Source of the DNA: a virus
Taxonomy: Duplodnaviria > Heunggongvirae > Uroviricota > Caudoviricetes
DNA: 9,331 bases
IMG/VR virus record: IMGVR_UViG_2526164667_000011
Coordinates: 1 to 9,331 of that record
Reading direction: 5' to 3' (one strand)
The notes under the pieces are model-generated. The model was not told the origin of the DNA and did not search any database. It worked only from the letters and a program-made list of their open reading frames with translations. How positions within the stretch are numbered: the stretch's first letter is position 1; every line of letters starts with the position of its first letter. Position numbers and translations under genes: made by a program. Positions 1-9,331 of this stretch are shown in pieces.

Positions 1-677
1 GTCAGCGACCAGAATTTTTTGATGTTGTTAATCGCGGTACGGCTGTATCGTTCGCGTTGTTCAACGATCCCCAGCTTCACCATCTGGTGATATGCCTGAT
101 TAGCCGTCAGGCGGATACCATACTGTTTCAGCAGTGCACTCAGCGACAGCGTGGGGCGGCTTGAGCCATCAGGCGCATCAGCAGGAGCATCAATGGCATA
201 GCGCGGTGCCAGATTCGGTAAGCCAACAGCCTCCTGAAGTTTCTGACAGGCTCCAAGCACTGAAGAGTTAGACAGATTTAACTCCCGGCGCATAAAGTCC
301 AGCAGAATCACACCAGCCTGCATCTTGTCAGCAGCCTGTTCGGATAATTTTTCCGGTGCGCTGGTTACCATGTCGAAAGTACGGATCACCTTCAGATGGA
401 ATGACGGGCTGATCCACATTGCATAGGCATACACCAGTTCTTTGCAGACATACGTCCCCTGGTTATTTCCGCCACGAATAACGTTAACTGGCTCTATATT
501 GACCGAGTTGCAAATCTGCAACTCGCTTATTAAACGCTCAGTTTGCTCATTGCGGAGCCAGAATGCAGGCTTATGCTTATCCAGAGAACCGGCAGCCCTG
601 TGCAGATCGTTCAGGCTGTAACGACCATAAGCATCACGACGAACTTCAATACCATCAATGACCATCAGATTATTCAT
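1..677 (-). CDS. KilA-N domain-containing protein (phage antirepressor-like DNA-binding protein); 3'-partial, C-terminus lies beyond the window start
   Basis: Not in the ORF track because it runs off the window. I translated the minus-strand frame by hand: ATG at 677..675 with an AGGAGA Shine-Dalgarno 6-7 nt upstream, then open to position 3 with no stop (more than 225 codons). The N-terminus MNNLMVIDGIEVRRDAYGRYSLNDLHRAAG...KPAFWLRNEQTERLISEL...GTYVCKELVYAYAMWISPSFHLKVI matches the KilA-N/APSES fold pattern from memory. It starts 19 nt downstream of the rusA stop. Confidence 0.6.
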   Translation of the reverse strand, partial: MNNLMVIDGIEVRRDAYGRYSLNDLHRAAGSLDKHKPAFWLRNEQTERLISELQICNSVNIEPVNVIRGGNNQGTYVCKELVYAYAMWISPSFHLKVIRTFDMVTSAPEKLSEQAADKMQAGVILLDFMRRELNLSNSSVLGACQKLQEAVGLPNLAPRYAIDAPADAPDGSSRPTLSLSALLKQYGIRLTANQAYHQMVKLGIVEQRERYSRTAINNIKKFWSL

Positions 678-696
678 ACTTCGTTTCTCCTCTTAA

Positions 697-1086
697 TCAG
701 GCGGCTGCACCCGCCGTTTTCTCGTACTTACTGATAGTGATCTCGACCTTCCCTTCCGGGATAACCGGTCCCCACTCCACCAGCATTCTTTTCACCTGAC
801 TGTCGTCTTCCCACACACCCGCGTGGGTCAGGGCGTCAAACAGCGCCTTGTTATAGTTGTCCAGATCGCGGATCCGGTTATCCGGAGGAAACAACACGAT
901 CTCCACTGAAGCAGGTGCCGACGTTGGTTTTGGCAGACGACGTAACTGCTCAACTATTGCTGCACACGCCGCGCTCTGGAATTTGCGCCCCGCCGCGCTT
1001 ATCAGGCTCTTACCTGCAAACGCCCCTTTGTTGGGGTGTCGCCAGTACGTGTTCACGCTGGGCGGGAAAGGCAGAATCAGCTTCAT
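697..1086 (-). CDS. rusA: RusA-family Holliday junction resolvase (crossover junction endodeoxyribonuclease)
   Basis: 129-aa ORF. LPFPPSVNTYWRH...DNRIRDLDNYNKALFDALTHAGVWEDDSQV resembles E. coli/phage RusA (PWPPSxNxYYRH...DLDN...KAxxDALTxAGxWxDDxQV), including the acidic catalytic cluster. Its start overlaps the upstream gene's stop by 4 nt (ATGA). Confidence 0.85.
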   Translation of the reverse strand: MKLILPFPPSVNTYWRHPNKGAFAGKSLISAAGRKFQSAACAAIVEQLRRLPKPTSAPASVEIVLFPPDNRIRDLDNYNKALFDALTHAGVWEDDSQVKRMLVEWGPVIPEGKVEITISKYEKTAGAAA

Positions 1087-1409
1087 ACTTTCAGACCCCT
1101 CTCATGTAACCAGTGGGCTGCACGCAGCCTGGCGTTTTCCTCACCGGCAAGCAGTGAGCGGATAATCCCGACCGCCTCGCTGTCGTCGTCCTTCACCGCG
1201 GTATGAAGCGTTATCCCCCGGGCCACACCACGCTTTATCGTGATGACGCCTTTTTTCTCCAGTGCGCGAAGATGCTCCACCGCTGCATTCACTGAACGAT
1301 ATCCCAGCATGGTTGCCACCTCCTGATTGGTTGGCGGAAAGCCACGCTCTTTCTGGTAAGAAATCAGCATATCCAGCACCTGCTGCTGGCATTGAGTTAA
1401 CGTCGTCAT
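1083..1409 (-). CDS. LexA N-terminal DNA-binding-domain-like protein (winged helix), lacking the S24 peptidase domain
   Basis: 108-aa ORF. LTQCQQQVLDMLISYQKERGFPPTNQEVATMLGYRSVNAAVEHLRALEKKGVITIKRGVARGITL parallels the LexA N-terminus ([65 protein letters not shown]). There is no GDSM/K peptidase region. 4-nt overlaps with both neighbouring genes. Confidence 0.7.
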   Translation of the reverse strand: MTTLTQCQQQVLDMLISYQKERGFPPTNQEVATMLGYRSVNAAVEHLRALEKKGVITIKRGVARGITLHTAVKDDDSEAVGIIRSLLAGEENARLRAAHWLHERGLKV

Positions 1410-2059
1410 GCCGCCATCTCCCTGACCAGTTTTTCCGCCTGCTGGCGAACCTGCGCCAGAAAGGCCTCACCACATGCCTCAAGTTCATCGCGCCCGATGT
1501 AGCTGATTGCCGGTCCCTTCCAGGTCTTGTCGAAAACAGCAATAGCACCAGCGAAGAAAGCGCCTGTCGGTACCTGCTTCTCGTCTTTCGGGATAAACCA
1601 GACAGGCAGTTCAAAACCAATACGCCCGCGAATAAAAGCAATATGATCTGCATCTTCCGGCCACCACACTTCGCTGGTGGCAGCTTTAATCAGGAAAACA
1701 TAGCGCCCGCCTTTATCACGCATGGCACTGGCATGCTTCATGATGTAACGCATGCCGGTGATGTATTGCCCCTCATGCTGACTGGCGCGGCTGTATGGGG
1801 GATTACCAAAGGCAGCACCTTTAAGCTCCGCAAGACGTTCTGACCAGTCATGCGCCAGCGCGTTGTCTTCCGCCGTGTAATACGCGGCACATTTGGCATT
1901 ATCACCGTCAGTGAACAGATCCAGAACAAACGGGCCAAACAGGGTGTTAATTCCCCAGAAAATGTTGTCCGGCGTGCGCCACTGATCGCCCACTTCCTTC
2001 AGTTCATGGGCTGGTTTGTTCCGCAGTTCCACCAGCGCCTGGCAATATTTATTACTCAT
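1406..2059 (-). CDS. Phage orphan N6-adenine DNA methyltransferase (Dam-like, NPPY motif)
   Basis: The protein contains GAAFGNPPYS, the catalytic (D/N)PPY motif IV of N6-adenine methyltransferases, and has typical phage Dam size. No restriction endonuclease partner is adjacent. The ORF track starts it at GTG 2092 (228 aa); I prefer ATG 2059 (217 aa, MSNKYCQ...), which forms a TAATG stop/start junction with the upstream gene and follows a GGGGG purine run. Confidence 0.75.
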   Translation of the reverse strand: MSNKYCQALVELRNKPAHELKEVGDQWRTPDNIFWGINTLFGPFVLDLFTDGDNAKCAAYYTAEDNALAHDWSERLAELKGAAFGNPPYSRASQHEGQYITGMRYIMKHASAMRDKGGRYVFLIKAATSEVWWPEDADHIAFIRGRIGFELPVWFIPKDEKQVPTGAFFAGAIAVFDKTWKGPAISYIGRDELEACGEAFLAQVRQQAEKLVREMAA

Positions 2060-2553
2060 TAAGCCCCCACGTAATTCCCTGACAGATACCACTCTTCACC
2101 CGATGCAGCGCGCTTGCTGCTTTTCCGTAAGCACCGCTCACGACGCGCCAGAAAATTGTTTCGCTCTTGCTGGGAGTGGCTTTCACGGAATGCCGCCATC
2201 CACACCGTTGCAGCACGACGGTATAAGCCCCTGGACTCCAGTTCTTCCGCCTGGCGGGTCAGGCACAAAATCACCCGTGGATCGTTAGTGCCGACATAGA
2301 AATTGCGCACAGGTCTGGTTTCTCGAACTGGTTGTGGTTCCGGTTCCTGCGCTCTCTCAGTCAGGCGCGGGAAATGTCTGCGTGTATCTCCTTCACAACG
2401 GTGAGCCACACGCCCGCTCTGACGTAACTTGCTTGCTGACCGCAGAACGCGCTGCCGTGAGTAACCTGCAAAAGCATCCGCAATGTCTCCGGAAGTACAC
2501 CCCGGATGGGCTTCAATGAATTTCTGAACGTCATTCAAAAGACTCATGATCAC
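2059..2553 (-). CDS. Putative transcriptional regulator with PerC-like C-terminal motif and a winged-helix-like N-terminus
   Basis: 164-aa ORF. The C-terminal segment LESRGLYRRAATVWMAAFRESHSQQERNNFLARRERCL resembles the PerC-family signature (GLWRRAAxRW) from memory. Start is GTG 2553 (4-nt overlap with the O-like stop) or ATG 2547. Same size and position as YfdN of CPS-53, from memory. Confidence 0.55.
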   Translation of the reverse strand: MIMSLLNDVQKFIEAHPGCTSGDIADAFAGYSRQRVLRSASKLRQSGRVAHRCEGDTRRHFPRLTERAQEPEPQPVRETRPVRNFYVGTNDPRVILCLTRQAEELESRGLYRRAATVWMAAFRESHSQQERNNFLARRERCLRKSSKRAASGEEWYLSGNYVGA

Positions 2554-3389
2554 CCCCTGAATCCTGCCGGGATCTGGCTGTAGTCCACGTTGTCGTAACT
2601 GGCTTTGAAGTACGGGTCCTCACGTCCGGCTACAGATACCGCAGGAACTTCCCAGGATTCTTCGAAATGACGATCCGGACCAAAGAACGTGACAGCCTGT
2701 TTCACAAATTGTGTGCCGCTGTTACCCATCGCAGATACCCAGCCCGCGTAGCGTTTCACACCTTCCAGCATGGTTTCGGGGTTTACCCCCTCATTCAAAC
2801 GGGCTTTCCAGGCTTTGAAGGCTGCAGATTTTGAATTGCCACCAGCACGTTTGGGATATGCCAGCCATGCCTGCTCAAACTCTGGAGAGTATTCCGGTCG
2901 GTTTGAACGAACTCGCACAGACTCATCAGCAGATGCACCAACAGCTATTGGTTCATTGACTGGTTCTTTGACTGGTTCAAAAGAGTGACTGGTTCTGGGT
3001 GAATCTCCTGCACTACCCCCTGGTGCAACTCCTGCACTACCTAGTGCAACTCCTGCACTACCTGGTGAATTTGCTGCACCAGATAGTGAATTATTTGCAC
3101 TACTCCCTAGTGAATCTCCTGCACCATCAAGATGAAGGAGATAGATATTACTTGAGTTACCTTTTTCACCTTTCCGGGTGACTTTTTTTACCAGCCCGGA
3201 CTCACAAAGGGCCGCAATATGATTCATCACAGAACGTTTGCTAATCTCGCACTGGTCAGCAATATGCTGGTAGCTGGGCCAGCACTCACCCTGATCGCTG
3301 GCATTATCAGCCAGCTTGATCAGAACCAGTTTTCGCAATGGATTACCCACTCGAATTTTCATCGCTTTAACCATCAGCTCCATACTCAT
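2550..3389 (-). CDS. Replication initiation protein, lambda O-like: N-terminal HTH DNA-binding domain, Gly/Ser/Ala-rich repeat linker encoded by the iterons, C-terminal replisome-organiser-like domain
   Basis: 279-aa ORF with a GGAGG Shine-Dalgarno 6 nt before ATG 3389. The N-terminus (KLVLIKLADNASDQGECWPSYQHIADQCEISKRSVMNHIAALCESGLVKK) is HTH-like. The linker GSAG-rich repeats coincide with the DNA repeats at 2999..3130. The C-terminal FEQAWLAYPKRAGGNSKSAAFKAWKAR motif resembles phage replication initiators. Architecture mirrors lambda O, whose gene also contains the origin. Confidence 0.75.
   Translation of the reverse strand: MSMELMVKAMKIRVGNPLRKLVLIKLADNASDQGECWPSYQHIADQCEISKRSVMNHIAALCESGLVKKVTRKGEKGNSSNIYLLHLDGAGDSLGSSANNSLSGAANSPGSAGVALGSAGVAPGGSAGDSPRTSHSFEPVKEPVNEPIAVGASADESVRVRSNRPEYSPEFEQAWLAYPKRAGGNSKSAAFKAWKARLNEGVNPETMLEGVKRYAGWVSAMGNSGTQFVKQAVTFFGPDRHFEESWEVPAVSVAGREDPYFKASYDNVDYSQIPAGFRG
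2999..3130. repeat. Iteron array (candidate phage origin of replication) inside the O-like gene: six tandem 21/24-bp units
   Basis: Units begin at 2999, 3023, 3044, 3065, 3086 and 3110. Examples are GTGCAACTCCTGCACTACCTA and GTGAATCTCCTGCACTACCCCCTG. Each unit holds an internal dyad (GTGCA...TGCAC). Periods are multiples of 3, so the reading frame is kept. An A+T-rich stretch follows at 3131..3193 (ATAGATATTA, CTTTTTCAC, ACTTTTTTTACC). Confidence 0.6.
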
Positions 3390-3610
3390 GCTGCACCTCC
3401 GAGATGCTTCATGTTTTTTCCGGAGCGAAAGGCTATAAGCGGCATACTGACGCGGTAATTACGGCCCAGCGGTTCACAAATCACCTTCTGACATTCACGG
3501 TCAACCAGGCTAACACGTAGAACATGCCCTGCAGGTGTGGTGTACCACTGACCCGGACGAGGACAACGGAAAGTCTGATTGGTAAACCGTTTGAAAATAT
3601 TCCGGATCAT
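3386..3610 (-). CDS. Small hypothetical protein (74 aa) between the Rha-domain gene and the O-like gene
   Basis: The ORF is bounded by 4-nt ATGA overlaps on both sides (start overlaps the Rha stop at 3607..3610; stop overlaps the O-like start at 3386..3389), the same coupling pattern as the rest of the operon. No recognisable motif. Its 3' end contains the O-like gene's Shine-Dalgarno. Confidence 0.45.
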   Translation of the reverse strand: MIRNIFKRFTNQTFRCPRPGQWYTTPAGHVLRVSLVDRECQKVICEPLGRNYRVSMPLIAFRSGKNMKHLGGAA

Positions 3611-4752
3611 TTGCGCCCCCTTACCTCTGAAGGGTTCAGCGACAAATTTATGAGGCAGGCCAGTGCCGAAGCATCATTAATATAGTCATACAAGCTAACA
3701 GCCAGCGGAGATTCGGCTTTTGCCAACATAGGATAAAGCTGCTGCAGCCAGACCTGATGAATTGATGAAATGTAGGAATAGAGAACGCTGGCGTTATGTG
3801 CAACGTCGCTCAGTACAGAGGGATTTGAAAGCTGTTTCTCCATCTGGTTAAAGGCATTGATGTATGCCTCTTTGAACTGGGCAGCACGTTTACCCGTGAA
3901 GCCCATGGCAAGAAACGCAAAACCGTCGCGGGTGATTTGGTAACAAGGGAGTTTGCGGCCTGTGCAATCGGTGTAATCACTGGGCTGAAAATTCAGCTCA
4001 GTGAATTCAACAGAGCACTCAAGCGTCTGGATTTTTTGAATAACGTTTTTGTGCTGCTTGCAGAAATATTCGGCAACGGCCAAAGAAGAGGTAACAGCCT
4101 TCCCATGGATAACATCAATTTTAGGGTGAGTTTGGGTAGGGGTGGTTGCCATAGTGACATCCTCATGTGCGAATTTTGAAAACTCACCACATGGGACGCC
4201 AATCACAGAGGTGGTGAGACGTACAGGGTTGGCGTAACCGGTCGCACATGACCCCGGCGCATCTTTCGATGCCCCTGCACGCCCCACCATAATTTGGATG
4301 TGAGGAAACGTGCGCAAAAAAACCGCTGAAGCGCGGTTATGCGCATGTGCGAATTTCAGGACGCCAATCCCGGCACCCGCTTTATAAGGTGCCTGAGCAG
4401 TGTAACGTCCCGGAATTGCAGAATCAATATGCTGGTGGTCCTTCACACTCAACAAAATCACGCCTGAATTTCCACAAAGGACTAAAGCACTCATGCGGGT
4501 AGTCTTTGCGAAGATAGATAACGCGCTGTGTTTCTGGCTCCCAACGAATAACATGGACATAAAGCCCTCTTCCGTCACGAAACCAGCGGTTAAGTTCCTG
4601 CACAACTCGCCCCCCACAGTCAGGTAAAGTTCTCTGTGGTTACTTACAGCCAGGTGATTTGGTAATCTGCATTCATGCCGTAACAACAGGTGTTCAGCGA
4701 CGCTGACCACCAGCTGTTGCGACAAACGGTTATTTGCCGTTAAACTGTTCAT
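3607..4752 (-). CDS. Rha-family phage regulatory protein; the track ORF is 381 aa with the Rha domain at about residues 205-300, and an internal ATG at 4152 would give a canonical 181-aa Rha protein
   Basis: VTSSLAVAEYFCKQHKNVIQKIQ...YQITRDGFAFLAMGFTGKRAAQFKEAYINAFNQMEKQL matches the Phage_pRha signature (ITRDGFxFLxMGFTGKxA...FxxAFNxME). The frame is open for 1146 nt, with an ATGA overlap with the upstream gene at 4749..4752. The internal ATG at 4152..4150 (Met201) has a GAGGA Shine-Dalgarno 7 nt upstream and sits where Rha proteins normally begin. Confidence 0.6.
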   Translation of the reverse strand: MNSLTANNRLSQQLVVSVAEHLLLRHECRLPNHLAVSNHRELYLTVGGELCRNLTAGFVTEEGFMSMLFVGSQKHSALSIFAKTTRMSALVLCGNSGVILLSVKDHQHIDSAIPGRYTAQAPYKAGAGIGVLKFAHAHNRASAVFLRTFPHIQIMVGRAGASKDAPGSCATGYANPVRLTTSVIGVPCGEFSKFAHEDVTMATTPTQTHPKIDVIHGKAVTSSLAVAEYFCKQHKNVIQKIQTLECSVEFTELNFQPSDYTDCTGRKLPCYQITRDGFAFLAMGFTGKRAAQFKEAYINAFNQMEKQLSNPSVLSDVAHNASVLYSYISSIHQVWLQQLYPMLAKAESPLAVSLYDYINDASALACLINLSLNPSEVRGRK

Positions 4753-5300
4753 GCGTTAGTTTCTCCACAGACACAAAACGCCACGACGCCCGGAGCTGCA
4801 CACTCGCGGGCGTCACTCTTTTCTGGAGCGCAAAAGATTTTGTAGACCAGTGCTGCATGCTCCTGGAGCTTCGAAATTGACAGATACAACTCATCATTAA
4901 TTGCTGTCTGCTCGTGTGGCTCCACTACCCCATCTTCGATTGCCGAACGAATCTGCTTTGAGTAACTCCCGATCTGTTCGATGGCTTCCAGCAGGCGCTG
5001 GTTTATATCGGCGTTCTCTACTTCCTCAATTTCAGGAAGCGATACAAACACCCCACCAGCAGACTGTGCGACAGCATCCGCAATGTAGTGAGTGCCAGCC
5101 GCGCGCTGTAAAATCATTGCCCATCCCAGCGGGAAAATCTGATCGCCATCTGCACGAAGGCGGTTGAATAAAGCGTTCTCTGTTACATCCAGCCACTCAG
5201 CAGCTTCAGCGTAACCTCCCGGCAACGCCGCGATAGTTTTTCTGACAGCTTTCACGTACCACTCAGGTTGTTTTTCCACTTTCCAGTGATGCTTACCCAC
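4749..5300 (-). CDS. Putative CII-like phage regulatory protein (in the cII position immediately after cro; possibly the CP76/YdaT-like family)
   Basis: 183-aa ORF with a GTG start at 5300 and a strong GGAGGT Shine-Dalgarno 5 nt upstream, which lies inside the 3' end of cro (8-nt overlap). Assignment is mainly by position/synteny; family membership is from weak memory only. Confidence 0.5.
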   Translation of the reverse strand: MGKHHWKVEKQPEWYVKAVRKTIAALPGGYAEAAEWLDVTENALFNRLRADGDQIFPLGWAMILQRAAGTHYIADAVAQSAGGVFVSLPEIEEVENADINQRLLEAIEQIGSYSKQIRSAIEDGVVEPHEQTAINDELYLSISKLQEHAALVYKIFCAPEKSDARECAAPGVVAFCVCGETNA

Positions 5301-5553
5301 GGCTTACCTCCTGTTCCTGTGGTTTAAACCCATTCTGGTTTTGGCTAGATTGAAAACGTGCCGGATAAAGAATCTGCATTTCGCTGATTTCACCCTTAAA
5401 AAAATTGGCCAGACGTTCTGCAAGATCGATAAATGGAATTTGTTCCTGTCTTTCAATACGACTCAGCGTCGCTGGATTGACCTGAACGCCCGCAGCAACA
5501 TGCTGCAAAGTAAATCCGTGCGCCTTACGCACATTCCGTAATGGTGATTGCAT
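5293..5553 (-). CDS. Cro-like HTH transcriptional regulator (XRE/Cro-C1 family)
   Basis: 86-aa ORF divergent from the cI-like gene. The HTH segment is GFTLQHVAAGVQVNPATLSRIERQEQIP. GGAGG Shine-Dalgarno 5-6 nt upstream of ATG 5553. First gene of the minus-strand early operon. Confidence 0.8.
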   Translation of the reverse strand: MQSPLRNVRKAHGFTLQHVAAGVQVNPATLSRIERQEQIPFIDLAERLANFFKGEISEMQILYPARFQSSQNQNGFKPQEQEVSRG

Positions 5554-5650
5554 ATAACCTCCACATATTGCGTGATGAGCATATTATTTCACGCAAATAT
5601 TTTGCGCAAGTTGATTTGCTTAACGCGCAATAAAGAAATGTAATAAACGC
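5554..5650. promoter_or_regulatory. Divergent cI/cro operator-promoter region (PR/PRM-like) with clustered TTGCG/CGCAA half-site palindromes
   Basis: Inverted repeats: TTGCGTGA-N13-TCACGCAA (about 5568..5596), CGCAAA-TAT-TTTGCG (5592..5606), palindromic TTGCGCAA (5602..5609) and TTGCttaacgcGCAA (5617..5630). Candidate minus-strand promoter for cro: -35 TTGCGC, 17-bp spacer, -10 TAATAT. Candidate plus-strand promoter for cI: -35 TTGCTT (5617..5622), 16-bp spacer, -10 TGTAAT (5639..5644), placing the transcript start at or next to the cI ATG. Confidence 0.55.
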
Positions 5651-6343
5651 ATGAACATAGGAAATCGAGTCAGACAACTTCGCCAGGCGAAGAACATGAA
5701 AATCGCCGATCTCGCTGAAGCAATAGGAGTGGATGCGGCGAATATCTCGCGCCTCGAAACAGGTAAGCAGAAACAATTCACTGAACAAGCCCTGAGTAAT
5801 ATTGCCAGGAGCTTAGGTGTTGATATTGCTGATCTCTTTACCTCAGACCTCAAAAGTAATACTGTATGTAAAAACAGTATTAGTGAGGATGTTGCGCAGG
5901 TGAAGGATGTATTCCGTATTGAAATGCTGGATGTCAGTGCCAGTGCGGGAAATGGCCTTATCCAGGGCGGTGATGTCATTGATGTGATTCATGCCATTGA
6001 ATACAGAACTGATAATGCTGTATCGATGTTTGGTGGACGACCAGCAAATCACATTAAAGTTATCAACGTTCGTGGGGACAGTATGTGTCCAACCATTGAG
6101 CCAGGAGATCTCATCTTCGTTGATATCAGTATCAATCAGTTTGATGGGGATGGTATATATGTATTTGGTTTTGATGATAAAATTTACGTCAAACGACTGC
6201 AAATGATACCTGATAAACTGCTGGTAATTTCTGATAATCAGATTTACCGCGAATGGGGAATTACCAGCGAAAACGAACATCGGTTTATGGTCTTTGGAAA
6301 GGTCTTAATCAGTCAGTCACAAACCCTTAAGCGACACAATTAA
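5651..6343 (+). CDS. cI: cI-like phage repressor: N-terminal HTH_XRE domain plus C-terminal S24 (LexA-like) autopeptidase domain
   Basis: 230-aa ORF. HTH: MKIADLAEAIGVDAANISRLETGKQ. Peptidase: Ser nucleophile in VRGDSMCPTIEPGDLIFVD (Ser144) and Lys in IYVKRL (Lys181), 37 residues apart as in LexA. Candidate Ala-Gly autocleavage site at Ala99-Gly100 (SASAGNG). No Shine-Dalgarno precedes the ATG. Confidence 0.9.
   Translation: MNIGNRVRQLRQAKNMKIADLAEAIGVDAANISRLETGKQKQFTEQALSNIARSLGVDIADLFTSDLKSNTVCKNSISEDVAQVKDVFRIEMLDVSASAGNGLIQGGDVIDVIHAIEYRTDNAVSMFGGRPANHIKVINVRGDSMCPTIEPGDLIFVDISINQFDGDGIYVFGFDDKIYVKRLQMIPDKLLVISDNQIYREWGITSENEHRFMVFGKVLISQSQTLKRHN
5860..5879. promoter_or_regulatory. SOS-box (LexA-box)-like palindrome TACTGTATGTAAAAACAGTA inside the cI coding sequence (interdomain linker)
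   Basis: Matches the E. coli LexA box consensus TACTGTATATATATACAGTA at 16 of 20 positions, with a perfect CTGT-N8-ACAG core and AT-rich centre. It is the only CTGT-N8-ACAG site I found in the window. Function is untested. Confidence 0.4.
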
Positions 6344-6364
6344 CCCCTACCTCAACATCAATTA

Positions 6365-6384
6365 GCCACCAGAAGGTGGCTTTT
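6365..6384 (+). terminator. Rho-independent terminator downstream of the cI-like gene
   Basis: GCCACC-agaa-GGTGGC hairpin (6-bp GC-rich stem, 4-nt loop) followed directly by TTTT, 22 nt after the cI stop. Confidence 0.6.
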
Positions 6385-6397
6385 CATCACCCACCAA

Positions 6398-6452
6398 ATT
6401 GCATATCTCGCAATAAAAACACTTGCATAATGCGCAACTTCATTTTATCTTT
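6398..6452 (+). promoter_or_regulatory. Candidate OL/PL-like operator-promoter for the rightward yfdP-yfdQ-yfdR operon
   Basis: ATTGC-atatctc-GCAAT (6398..6415) and TTGC-ataatgc-GCAA (6423..6437) repeat the TTGC/GCAA half-sites seen in the cI-cro region. Possible promoter: -35 TTGCAT (6423..6428), 17-bp spacer, -10 TATCTT (6446..6451). Hexamer assignment is tentative. Confidence 0.3.
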
Positions 6453-6883
6453 CTTTCCAGACATACAAACAAGGTACTAACAAAATTTGGTTGTAACACG
6501 GCGTATGGCACATGCGTCGTTAGCGGTCTGGTGACGTTAAAGGGGACAATCCACTCCTTGCTCGAGCAAACAAACCAGGTAGCCGGAATGTGCAAGTCAA
6601 TGATGACGCTGATAAGACGCCTAACCAGCGTGGCGATTCGGTTTGACGCCTGGGAAGAGACCAGGGTGCAACGATGAGGGCATTTATGGAACCGCGACAA
6701 AGTGTGGTGCCGTAACTGGCTAAGTGCTCTCAGCGTTGTGGTGAATGCGCAGGCTGATGCGCGAAAGACATTGCAGCTATTGCGGAAAAGAGCTGTTCGG
6801 CGGGGCAATTAAACGCCCGTGAGAGTCTGAAATAACCGCAAGCCGGAGATCAGCACCGGTCACCACAGCAGCCACTGCTTTGG

Positions 6884-6929
6884 CGGTACCAGTTTGTACA
6901 CTTGCTTACGGCTGGTACCGCTCTTTTTA
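6884..6929 (+). terminator. Hairpin followed by a T-run in the long leader before yfdP (terminator-like, or an RNA element with a boxA-like CGCTCTTTTTA)
   Basis: Perfect 9-bp stem CGGTACCAG/CTGGTACCG (6884..6892 and 6912..6920) with a 19-nt loop, followed by CTCTTTTTA. The sequence CGCTCTTTTTA (6919..6929) resembles a lambdoid/rrn boxA (CGCTCTTA / TGCTCTTTAACAA). The large loop makes a classic terminator uncertain. Confidence 0.35.
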
Positions 6930-7065
6930 CAAAACAGAGAAGAGCATCACCGGACGACGGGCTCATAACCCAATCCATCCGGGCGGCTGCCACCGCAGGT
7001 GTTCTTCTCTGTTTTGTGGAGAAACCAACCGACCTTGCAGGGTCGATATGATGAGGAGTAGCAAA

Positions 7066-7428
7066 ATGGCTAGCGAACGCAGTACTGATGTGCAGGCATT
7101 TATCGGGGAGCTGGACGGCGGCGTATTTGAAACCAAAATCGGCGCAGTTCTCAGTGAAGTCGCTTCCGGTGTGATGAACACGAAAACCAAAGGTAAGGTC
7201 TCGCTCAACCTGGAAATCGAACCGTTTGATGAGAACCGTGTGAAAATCAAACACAAACTCTCATATGTTCGCCCGACTAACCGCGGGAAAATTTCTGAAG
7301 AAGACACCACCGAAACGCCGATGTATGTCAATCGCGGTGGTCGCCTGACTATTCTGCAGGAAGACCAGGGACAATTACTGACTCTTGCCGGTGAACCTGA
7401 CGGAAAACTCCGCGCAGAAGGTCATTAA
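7066..7428 (+). CDS. Hypothetical protein, YfdP-like (CPS-53/KpLE1 prophage family), 120 aa
   Basis: The track ORF starts at 6880, but the plausible start is ATG 7066 (MASERSTDVQAFIGELDGG...), preceded by GAGGAG about 8 nt upstream; two ATGs at 7047/7050 lack a Shine-Dalgarno. The size and the position immediately upstream of yfdQ fit YfdP from memory. Confidence 0.65.
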   Translation: MASERSTDVQAFIGELDGGVFETKIGAVLSEVASGVMNTKTKGKVSLNLEIEPFDENRVKIKHKLSYVRPTNRGKISEEDTTETPMYVNRGGRLTILQEDQGQLLTLAGEPDGKLRAEGH

Positions 7429-7493
7429 TATCGTTCTTAATTAACTGATTATTTATCTCATCACTGAATATCTTAATATAGTGAGGACTTATT

Positions 7494-8318
7494 ATGTCTC
7501 AGAACTTAGACGCAACCGCAATTAATCAAATCCATGCCCTTATTTCTGCTCAGGGTGTTAATGAAATTATCAGTAAGATTGGTGCCGATGCTGTGGCATT
7601 GCCTGAGAATTTCCGCATTCATGATCTGGAAAAATTTAATTTAAATCGCTTCCGTTTCCGTGGTGCGCTTTCCACTGCCAGCATCGATGACTTTACCCGT
7701 TATTCTAAAGATCTTGCAGATGAAGGCACCCGCTGCTTTATCGATGCCGATAATATGCGAGCAGTCAGTGTGCTTAACCTGGGTACTATTGATGAACCAG
7801 GTCACGCAGATAACACCGCCACTCTCAAACTGAAAAAGACAGCACCGTTCTCTGCCCTGTTGTCTGTTAACGGCGAGCGTAACTCCCAGAAGTCACTGGC
7901 AGAATGGATTGAAGACTGGGCCGACTACCTTGTGGGCTTTGATGCTAATGGTGACGCTATTCAGGCAACAAAAGCGGCTGCGGCGGTCCGTAAAATCACG
8001 ATTGAAGCAAACCAGACCGCTGATTTTGAAGATAATGACTTCAGCGGCAAACGCTCCCTGATGGAGTCTGTCGAAGCGAAGACCAAAGATATTATGCCAG
8101 TGGCATTTGAATTTAAATGCGTTCCGTTTGAAGGTCTGAAAGAACGTCCGTTTAAATTACGCCTCAGCATTATCACTGGCGATCGTCCTGTACTGGTTCT
8201 GCGCATTATTCAGCTGGAGGCGGTGCAGGAAGAAATGGCTAACGAATTTCGTGATCTGCTTGTTGAGAAATTCAAGGACAGCAAAGTAGAAACCTTTATT
8301 GGTACTTTCACCGCCTGA
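7494..8318 (+). CDS. yfdQ: YfdQ-family protein (DUF2303), 274 aa
   Basis: GAGGA Shine-Dalgarno about 8 nt upstream of the ATG. Length and sequence ([21 protein letters not shown]...) match my recollection of E. coli K-12 CPS-53 YfdQ. It lies directly upstream of the HD-domain yfdR-like gene, as in K-12. Confidence 0.8.
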
Positions 8319-8330
8319 TTTCATTACTGC

Positions 8331-8355
8331 AAATGCCCCTGCGGGGGCATTTATG
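8331..8355 (+). terminator. Stem-loop downstream of yfdQ (possible weak intrinsic terminator or attenuator)
   Basis: AAATGCCCC-tgcg-GGGGCATTT hairpin (9-bp stem with a GC-rich core) starting 13 nt after the yfdQ stop. The trailing U-tract is short (AUUUAUGG), so termination is probably partial. Confidence 0.4.
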
Positions 8356-8445
8356 GAAACGTAATTTACTCAATAATCGCCGGATGGTGAGGGATTCTTT
8401 TTACCAGAATTCAGCGCGGTGCAGCGCATATACGTGGAGAACAAA

Positions 8446-9331
<886 letters not shown>

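Follow-up and report, generated by a model that had tools for sequence, protein, structure and literature searches.

The DNA considered here, called the window throughout, is a stretch of 9,331 nucleotides (positions 1 to 9,331 of the IMG/VR virus record IMGVR_UViG_2526164667_000011, a member of the Caudoviricetes) and represents the early region of a lambdoid Escherichia coli prophage of the SfV/CPS-53 kind. Our subject is a set of three overlapping genes on its minus strand (1083-2553), which in the early-right ('nin'-type) operon have the replication genes on one side and rusA on the other; among them is the gene for a protein of 108 amino acids which keeps the DNA-binding domain of LexA and has lost the protease half. 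Its two companions encode a PerC-family protein of the YfdN type and an orphan phage Dam-type N6-adenine DNA methyltransferase. An initial annotation of this DNA had placed the three open reading frames (ORFs) exactly where we find them, all on the minus strand downstream of the replication gene, and Pfam bore out each of the domains it had assigned (PerC, Dam-type methyltransferase, LexA DNA-binding domain).

The coordinates of the ORFs show how closely these genes are packed (Table 1). The TGA stop of the replication gene overlaps the GTG start of the PerC-family gene, in the sequence GTGA; TAATG combines the stop of the PerC-family gene with the start of the methyltransferase gene; ATGA is common to the junction between the methyltransferase and the LexA-like gene, and likewise to the junction between the latter and rusA. 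As every junction overlaps, the packing is compatible with translational coupling. The start of the methyltransferase was set at a GTG at 2092 in the mechanical list of ORFs, while RefSeq has the ATG at 2059, yielding 217 amino acids. A scan of the minus strand between 1083 and 3700 returned no promoter-like or terminator-like site, and the trio is therefore to be seen as internal members of the early-right operon: mosaic accessory genes, whose transcription requires the phage repressor to be off.

Table 1. Features of the window, beginning with the three genes under study
Feature	Position	Strand	Evidence or detail
LexA-DNA-binding-domain-only protein, 108 amino acids (SfV orf42; phrog_362)	1083-1409	-	Pfam LexA_DNA_bind
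Codons 1-68 of the 108-residue protein: LexA-type winged helix-turn-helix	1206-1409	-	recognition helix SVNAAVEHL
Codons 75-108 of the 108-residue protein: family-specific C-terminal tail, two predicted amphipathic helices	1086-1187	-	
Orphan phage Dam-type N6-adenine DNA methyltransferase, 217 amino acids	1406-2059	-	Pfam Dam PF05869, TIGR01712
PerC-family protein, YfdN type, 164 amino acids	2059-2553	-	Pfam PerC
RusA Holliday-junction resolvase	697-1086	-	Pfam RusA 6.1e-15
Replication initiator	2550-3389	-	Pfam HTH_36 1.9e-11 and DnaD_N; phrog_270 replication initiation protein 5.4e-88
ORF of 74 amino acids	between the 'Rha' ORF and the replication initiator	-	
'Rha' ORF, 381 amino acids	3607-4752	-	
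cII/YmfL-like	4749-5300	-	
cro-like	5293-5553	-	
cI-like S24 repressor	5651-6343	+	
Near-consensus LexA box TACTGTATGTAAAAACAGTA in the cI-like gene, codons 70-76	5860-5879	not assigned	matrix score
yfdP/yfdQ/yfdR-type genes	in the window	+	

The anatomy of this block has already been catalogued. The 1471-bp block was matched in 2681 of 5426 complete E. coli genomes, about half of them, with a coverage of at least 80% in 1610. All three proteins are exact database sequences, each present on hundreds to more than 1000 contigs, and RefSeq names them 'PerC family (yfdN)', 'phage N-6-adenine-methyltransferase' and 'LexA family transcriptional regulator'. The run orf40-dam-orf42-orf43 of SfV is the same block: its first three proteins are 97%, 99.5% and 97% identical to those here, gene order and overlaps agree, and no meaningful difference separates the two within it; they differ in their immunity and late regions, the cI of SfV having no internal LexA box. 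The block is found again in SfII, SfIV, mEp460, cdtI and many Stx2a- and Stx2c-converting phages, and K-12, in its CPS-53 element, presumably keeps just yfdN and a fragment of the methylase gene.

A LexA DNA-binding domain with a tail of its own

Residues 1-65 of the 108-residue protein match the Pfam family LexA_DNA_bind (PF01726, 2.9e-19) over the full length of the model (1-65/65), and identity with the N-terminal domain of E. coli LexA is about 50% (LexA residues 2-69; 68 residues). In a model made with AlphaFold 2 (AF2), with a predicted local distance difference test (pLDDT) value of 83.8, residues 1-68 superpose on that domain in 1LEA/3JSO with a root-mean-square deviation of 1.0-1.3 A (Foldseek). 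There the resemblance ends. While LexA of E. coli goes on with the Ala84-Gly85 cleavage region, the S24 domain that carries Ser119 and Lys156, and a C-terminal dimerisation domain, the phage protein does without all of these. Its chain stops at residue 108, and no Peptidase_S24 match was found when it was scanned with Pfam. Against the lexA equivalog model TIGR00498 it scored 70.8, below the cutoff of 110.95, and aligned with model positions 1-91 only, because the half in charge of cleavage, catalysis and dimerisation is missing. The initial annotation was thus right in stating that this protein cannot autocleave.

Where LexA has its cleavage and dimerisation domain stands a 34-residue, two-helix tail. 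In the AF2 model a floppy linker (residues 69-74) leads to predicted helices at 75-88 and 93-103 (pLDDT 86-88). The tail is kept even in relatives that are only about 40% identical, A97 and L101 being invariant, and this conservation argues for a functional part of the protein rather than for the remnant of a frameshift. No counterpart of the tail residues was found by sequence in the PDB. The protein as a whole is matched end to end by phrog_362, a phage 'transcriptional repressor' profile of 106 positions (1.4e-59; residues 1-108 against profile 1-106/106), and homologues exist in 61 phage records, in 54 of which the match extends over 80% or more of the query. We considered the motif LLAGEE of the tail, which aligns with VAAGEP at the cleavage site of LexA, as a cleavage site or pseudo-substrate, and dropped the idea, the Ala-Gly pair not being kept in the family.

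The residues by which LexA contacts its operator are S39, N41, A42, E44 and E45 (PMC3091678). With S-V-N-A-A-V-E the protein of the window keeps four of the five (S39, N41, A42 and E45), a valine replacing E44, and the helix that is commonest among the other members examined, SPNAAAEHL, is that of LexA, SPNAAEEHL, with E44 alone changed.

Another protease-less architecture built on LexA came to light alongside: many proteins of about 140-350 amino acids (P0132, P0148, P0152, P0153, P0156, P0160, P0163, P0164 and others) have two LexA DNA-binding domains in tandem, apparently without a protease, and form a covalent pseudo-dimer.

LexA boxes and the neighbourhoods of relatives

Sites were scored with a LexA matrix that we built from 19 training sites. 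The window has one strong box, TACTGTATGTAAAAACAGTA, located in the linker codons (70-76) of the cI-like repressor gene; it reaches 25.8 bits, more than 17 of the 19 training sites, and the exact core CTGT-N8-ACAG is expected 0.17 times per window. The same position of cI is occupied in mEp460 and in Stx2a_1447, and the box is present in 13 of 80 viral loci, our sample of close or near-identical loci, which are related to one another. In one allele the core is perfect, TACTGTATATAAAAACAGTA, though the flanking codons differ, which suggests selection acting on the DNA site and not on the protein. Strong boxes occur at about 42 per megabase in the 80 loci, as against about 1 per megabase in shuffles, the counts not being independent, as the loci are related. 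By its matrix score the box of the window is a candidate operator for host LexA and possibly also for the 108-residue protein. On the strand opposite to the box, TTCACC-17-AATACT precedes it, a candidate for a weak SOS-controlled promoter that would run antisense to cI, toward cro. A second exact CTGT-N8-ACAG, CTGTGGTTACTTACAG at 4634-4649, was dropped as a LexA box, since its score is under 12 bits, its spacer contains GC and its place is in coding sequence, 103 bp into the Rha ORF; SfV and mEp460 have it at an identical offset, which may reflect mere coding conservation. In mEp460 another box precedes dinI.

The relatives of the protein form two sister clades, which differ in their surroundings. 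The window and mEp390 fall into clade A, as do relatives with identities of 41-48%. The gene order of this clade is replication gene, optional PerC, optional methyltransferase, LexA-like gene and rusA; the family of the methyltransferase varies (PF05869, PF00145, or PF00145 together with PF02086), and in the loci that were read the LexA-like gene overlaps rusA by 4 bp. RusA comes directly after the LexA-like gene in all 80 close loci, and follows it also in two loci where the RusA subfamily can barely be aligned. From an overlapping neighbour so faithfully kept, even among distant relatives and with a very different RusA, one might conclude that the protein assists RusA or phage recombination, for example by targeting or restraining the resolution of junctions, and is not a transcription factor. 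Yet 23 loci of the sister clade have the gene with no RusA match downstream, RusA is commonly found without any LexA-like gene, as in DLP12, and the fold is that of a sequence-specific repressor domain, all of which makes this role very improbable.

Clade B was found with a relative of 135 amino acids, P0137, and counts 34 viral loci with identities of 45-97%; P0207, used as the query of a viral scan, gave no match. In 28 of these 34 loci the gene has a near-consensus LexA box (17.6-30.1 bits) upstream of it, at a distance of 437-689 bp in 25, and in the three that were read (L092, L093 and L119) the box comes immediately after a readable -35/-10 pair, which a terminator precedes. In 21 loci dinI (Pfam 1.2e-23) stands between the box and the gene, the operon reading SOS box, dinI, small ORF, LexA-like gene, an ORF of 67 amino acids, optional rusA, DUF968 and Q. 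The family phrog_362 is therefore wired repeatedly into the SOS circuit, beside a known modulator of RecA*, and the box and dinI operons of the sister clade support an SOS-related role of the gene.

Several further boxes were met while these loci were read. L119 has a perfect consensus SOS box, TACTGTATATATATACAGTA (30.1 bits, 1837-1856), in front of an ORF of 109 amino acids (1877-2206) which starts with GFPSPAKDYAEQ, like UmuD', has no GDSM catalytic motif and gave no Pfam match; the pair recurs in L110, L113, L116, L117, L120, L123 and L130, and the ORF may encode an SOS-controlled, S24-like protein without catalytic activity, adjoining the operon of dinI and the LexA-like gene. Another box, TACTGTAAAAATAAACAGTG (22.5 bits), extends over codons 3-9 of a gene for an M.EcoGII-like adenine methylase located after Q, in SfV (L002, 34170-34189), mEp460 (L003, 41021), cdtI (L004, 16084) and Stx2a_1447 (L005, 15934); at 6739 of L093 the box of the methylase gene lies just upstream of it. 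The paper on M.EcoGII describes its gene as silent in its host and leaves LexA and SOS unmentioned; repression by LexA, judging from the box, could explain this silence. Finally, TACTGTATTTATGAACAGTG (22.3 bits) occurs in the intergenic region after rusA, upstream of an ORF of 271 amino acids, in six viral loci (among them L048 at 974, L065 at 4765 and L067 at 3755). This ORF, which sits where L001 has a KilA-N gene, could be an SOS-controlled gene right downstream of the pair formed by the LexA-like gene and rusA.

Accessory neighbours and other features of the window

The methyltransferase and the PerC-family gene are ordinary accessory genes that had been annotated before. The former matches Pfam Dam (PF05869, 1.1e-45) and is a member of NCBIfam TIGR01712, phage_N6A_met, with 256.5 bits for a cutoff of 97.05; its catalytic (D/N)PPY motif reads NPPY at residues 86-89, and 216 of its 217 residues (99.5%) are identical to those of SfV dam/orf41. 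That this NPPY enzyme lacks a cognate nuclease, as had been claimed, agrees with the absence of any restriction endonuclease annotation in 19.5 kb around a 100%-identical copy in NZ_CP074756, and with PADLOC, which returned methyltransferase models only and no defence-system context: the enzyme is an orphan, without an adjacent restriction endonuclease. SfV orf-41 was reportedly confirmed by experiment to encode a Dam methylase acting on GATC (Allison et al., J Bacteriol 2002). Because of the 99.5% identity to SfV Dam, the enzyme most likely methylates GATC on fast-replicating phage DNA and, taken together with the Dam assignment just mentioned, this means that its target motif, which methylome sequencing had been proposed to identify, is probably already known. 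GATC occurs 35 times in the window for 36-43 expected, and is neither avoided nor enriched. The enzyme is of the PF05869 Dam type, and an identity with the non-specific M.EcoGII was dropped, M.EcoGII having about 350 amino acids and a gene placed after Q in related phages. In the module the Dam gene is dispensable: it is missing from about 27 of the 80 near-identical viral loci, and SfIV is likewise without dam (PMC3851460).

The protein of 164 amino acids matches Pfam PerC (PF06069, 2.1e-9) with residues 100-151, at 38 bits for a gathering score of 22.6, and is 97% identical to SfV orf40; RefSeq has it as yfdN/PerC family. The YfdN type has been called 'the K12 unique PerC homologue' (PMC5931665). 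The AF2 model has pLDDT values of about 90 for a winged helix-turn-helix at residues 2-62 and for a three-helix PerC domain at 92-150, separated by a disordered linker (65-86, below 50), and the N-terminal domain comes within about 2 A of generic winged helices of the ArsR/BlaI type in the PDB. This protein, as modelled, is probably a transcription factor. What it has in common with the PerC and Pch regulators of enteropathogenic and enterohaemorrhagic E. coli is the C-terminal 52 residues, with their Pfam PerC match; PchA-C have 104 amino acids (315-bp genes), against 164 here, and the present protein has an extra N-terminal winged helix and linker. Identity with PchE was dropped, as PchE of strain Sakai has 90 amino acids and is 40% identical over the 52-residue PerC segment only. 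Among the Pch proteins only PchA-C strongly activate ler, PchD and PchE having a minimal effect (PMC5931665). Activation of LEE1/ler is what defines PerC and PchA-C; a host-directed role of the present protein is possible but unsupported.

The three genes might also be taken as one cooperative system, in which regulation by both DNA-binding proteins would depend on methylation. Their tight overlap invites this thought, as do the methyltransferases, not all of one family, that stand before the LexA-like gene in several distant loci. The survey of neighbourhoods speaks otherwise. Dam is missing from about 27 of the 80 near-identical loci and from SfIV; the PerC-family gene, which is paired with the LexA-like gene in 76 of the 80 close loci, was missing wherever the gene neighbourhoods of relatives at 41-48% identity were read; and the frequency of GATC in the window is as expected. 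We give hardly any credence to a system of this kind. The word 'coupled', which the initial annotation had applied to the trio, is compatible with the overlapping junctions and does not extend to function: as about a third of the near-identical loci have no Dam, and the distant relatives that were examined no PerC, the three are neighbours in a mosaic accessory region and do not make up a dedicated system.

Beyond rusA, a genome that is 100% identical to the window over 8969 bases continues with genes for KilA-N, DUF968 and the Q antiterminator. At the other end the identity with related genomes stops at 8969, and in 8970-9331 an ORF from 9056 resembles a transposase of the IS21 family. The yfdR-like gene, annotated in RefSeq as a 5'-deoxynucleotidase, is seemingly broken by an insertion sequence element. 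On the minus strand, 4207-4294 and 4316-4392 give Rfam matches at the gathering level, to C4 antisense RNA (75.1 bits) and to isrK (62.3 bits), so that the N-terminal half of the 'Rha family' ORF shares its sequence with an immI-like module for RNA control, of the type of P1 c4-icd-ant or Gifsy-1 IsrK. The start of the Rha antirepressor is probably an internal methionine near residue 200 of this 381-residue ORF.

An uncleavable surrogate of LexA?

How, then, should we understand a LexA-type DNA-binding domain that no protease domain accompanies? We propose, tentatively and somewhat short of calling it probable, that the 108-residue protein is a RecA-insensitive surrogate of LexA, made dimeric by its tail and produced in the lytic phase, which re-closes SOS-box promoters. 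The tail would replace the C-terminal domain of LexA as the dimerisation element, and the dimer would bind operators of the LexA type (CTGT-N8-ACAG). As the Ala-Gly site with its Ser/Lys protease domain is missing, RecA* would be unable to remove it. It would be made at induction or infection, once the LexA of the host has been destroyed. Its phage targets may be the box inside cI in the present case and, in relatives, the SOS-controlled promoters of dinI, of antirepressor-like genes and of methylase genes, host SOS genes being possible further targets. The net effect, and with it the presumed physiological benefit, would be a damage-insensitive shut-off of, or feedback on, SOS-controlled transcription. 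The earlier suggestion that the protein may mimic LexA at SOS boxes gains indirect support from its recognition helix, almost that of LexA, and from the LexA-box and dinI operons of its relatives.

The timing assumed here separates this proposal from the one made at the outset, namely that a lysogen would make the protein constitutively, as a non-inducible competitor of LexA that tunes the SOS response of its host. The architecture is indeed uncleavable, and the isrK/C4 RNA module located upstream suggests that some transcription of the minus strand is possible in lysogens. However, the block is without a promoter-like site, and its place in the repressed early operon is downstream of cro, of cII and of the replication genes; as its genes are far inside the early-right operon and have no separate promoter, a tuning of SOS in the lysogen is less likely than an action during lytic development. 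Moreover, the half of E. coli genomes that have the block include O157 strains in which SOS is normally inducible, and with so common a block a phenotype of the LexA(Ind-) kind should have been noticed. We regard constitutive competition in lysogens as distinctly improbable.

Other observations weigh against the lytic surrogate that we propose. The isolated N-terminal domain of LexA binds operators weakly, and the model therefore depends on the proposed dimerising tail. The boxes upstream of relatives mean control by host LexA; they do not imply that the gene product binds there. The cI genes of SfV and cdtI have no box, though both phages carry the LexA-like gene, so that the box cannot be an obligatory target. 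Literature searches found no study of the protein. Furthermore, Glu44 is replaced in every member of the family, and Glu45 as well in one subclade (SPNAVALHL); with Glu44 lost throughout, specificity may differ from that of LexA.

This last point leads to the main alternative, that the protein is an activator or repressor specific to the phage, with a phage operator of its own, and is no competitor at the SOS boxes of the host. A direct precedent exists: gp6 of GIL01, a tectivirus of Bacillus thuringiensis, is a truncated LexA homologue which has evolved its own site, binds GaCACAnnTGTGaC, a palindrome that overlaps the -35 element of the late promoter, and activates this promoter (PMC6182141). 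With its matches to LexA_DNA_bind and phrog_362 and its distribution in phage records, the 108-residue protein belongs to the same class of phage truncated LexA homologues. The constant place of its gene, with DUF968 and the Q antiterminator always a few genes further downstream, would suit a function of this sort, as would the changes of Glu44 in all members and of Glu45 in one subclade. Coexistence with phage promoters that host LexA controls is likewise a feature of gp6. As described, however, gp6 has essentially no extra domain, a diverged recognition helix (in which K38 is critical) and its own palindrome, whereas the present protein is set apart by its LexA-like helix, its conserved helical tail and its setting in lambdoid prophages of Enterobacteriaceae. 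The recognition helix, SPNAAAEHL against SPNAAEEHL, is far nearer to that of LexA than a diverged specificity would suggest. When CTGT...ACAG palindromes, the one type of motif scanned, were counted at spacings 0-16 in the window, L001, SfV and mEp460, only N8 was above chance, and the LexA boxes and dinI that accompany the sister clade indicate the SOS circuit. A private operator in the manner of gp6 is therefore rather unlikely in our view, while deserving serious attention.

The surrogate proposed here should also be set beside the phage proteins that are known to act in the SOS circuit. DinI, Tum of phage 186 and gp7 of GIL01 resemble it in being encoded behind LexA boxes and in acting on that circuit; they act on RecA*, CI or the LexA protein, and not as DNA-binding surrogates of LexA. 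DinI is of particular interest, as its gene shares an operon with the sister-clade members of phrog_362. Orf97 of phage 186, half-remembered as a LexA-like product of an SOS operon, was dropped from the comparison: it has no Pfam match, and is annotated solely as blocking infection. It is tempting to extend the proposal to the whole family, and to see in phrog_362 a set of RecA-insensitive surrogates of LexA, which re-occupy phage and host SOS operators in lytic growth, once the LexA of the host has been cleaved. In one clade they would do so jointly with a co-transcribed DinI, and temperate phages of Enterobacteriaceae would thereby have a dedicated, two-pronged means of shutting off SOS, where DinI acts on RecA* and the surrogate on operators. 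This wider view we offer with more reserve, as possible and somewhat doubtful.

The LexA-domain protein is in any case an uncharacterised variant among the truncated LexA homologues of phages. If it were indeed an uncleavable surrogate, it would be a second case, independent of GIL01 gp6, of phages having taken just the DNA-binding half of LexA, this time with a different added module and, unlike gp6, with the operator specificity of the host probably retained. A gene found in about half of E. coli genomes, Stx2-converting phages included, would then modulate SOS at the time of induction. The induction of such a prophage would affect competing prophages with LexA-controlled antirepressors, the release of colicins and mutagenesis, and this would bear on the induction of Shiga-toxin phages, on competition between co-resident prophages and on the SOS mutagenesis that antibiotics trigger.

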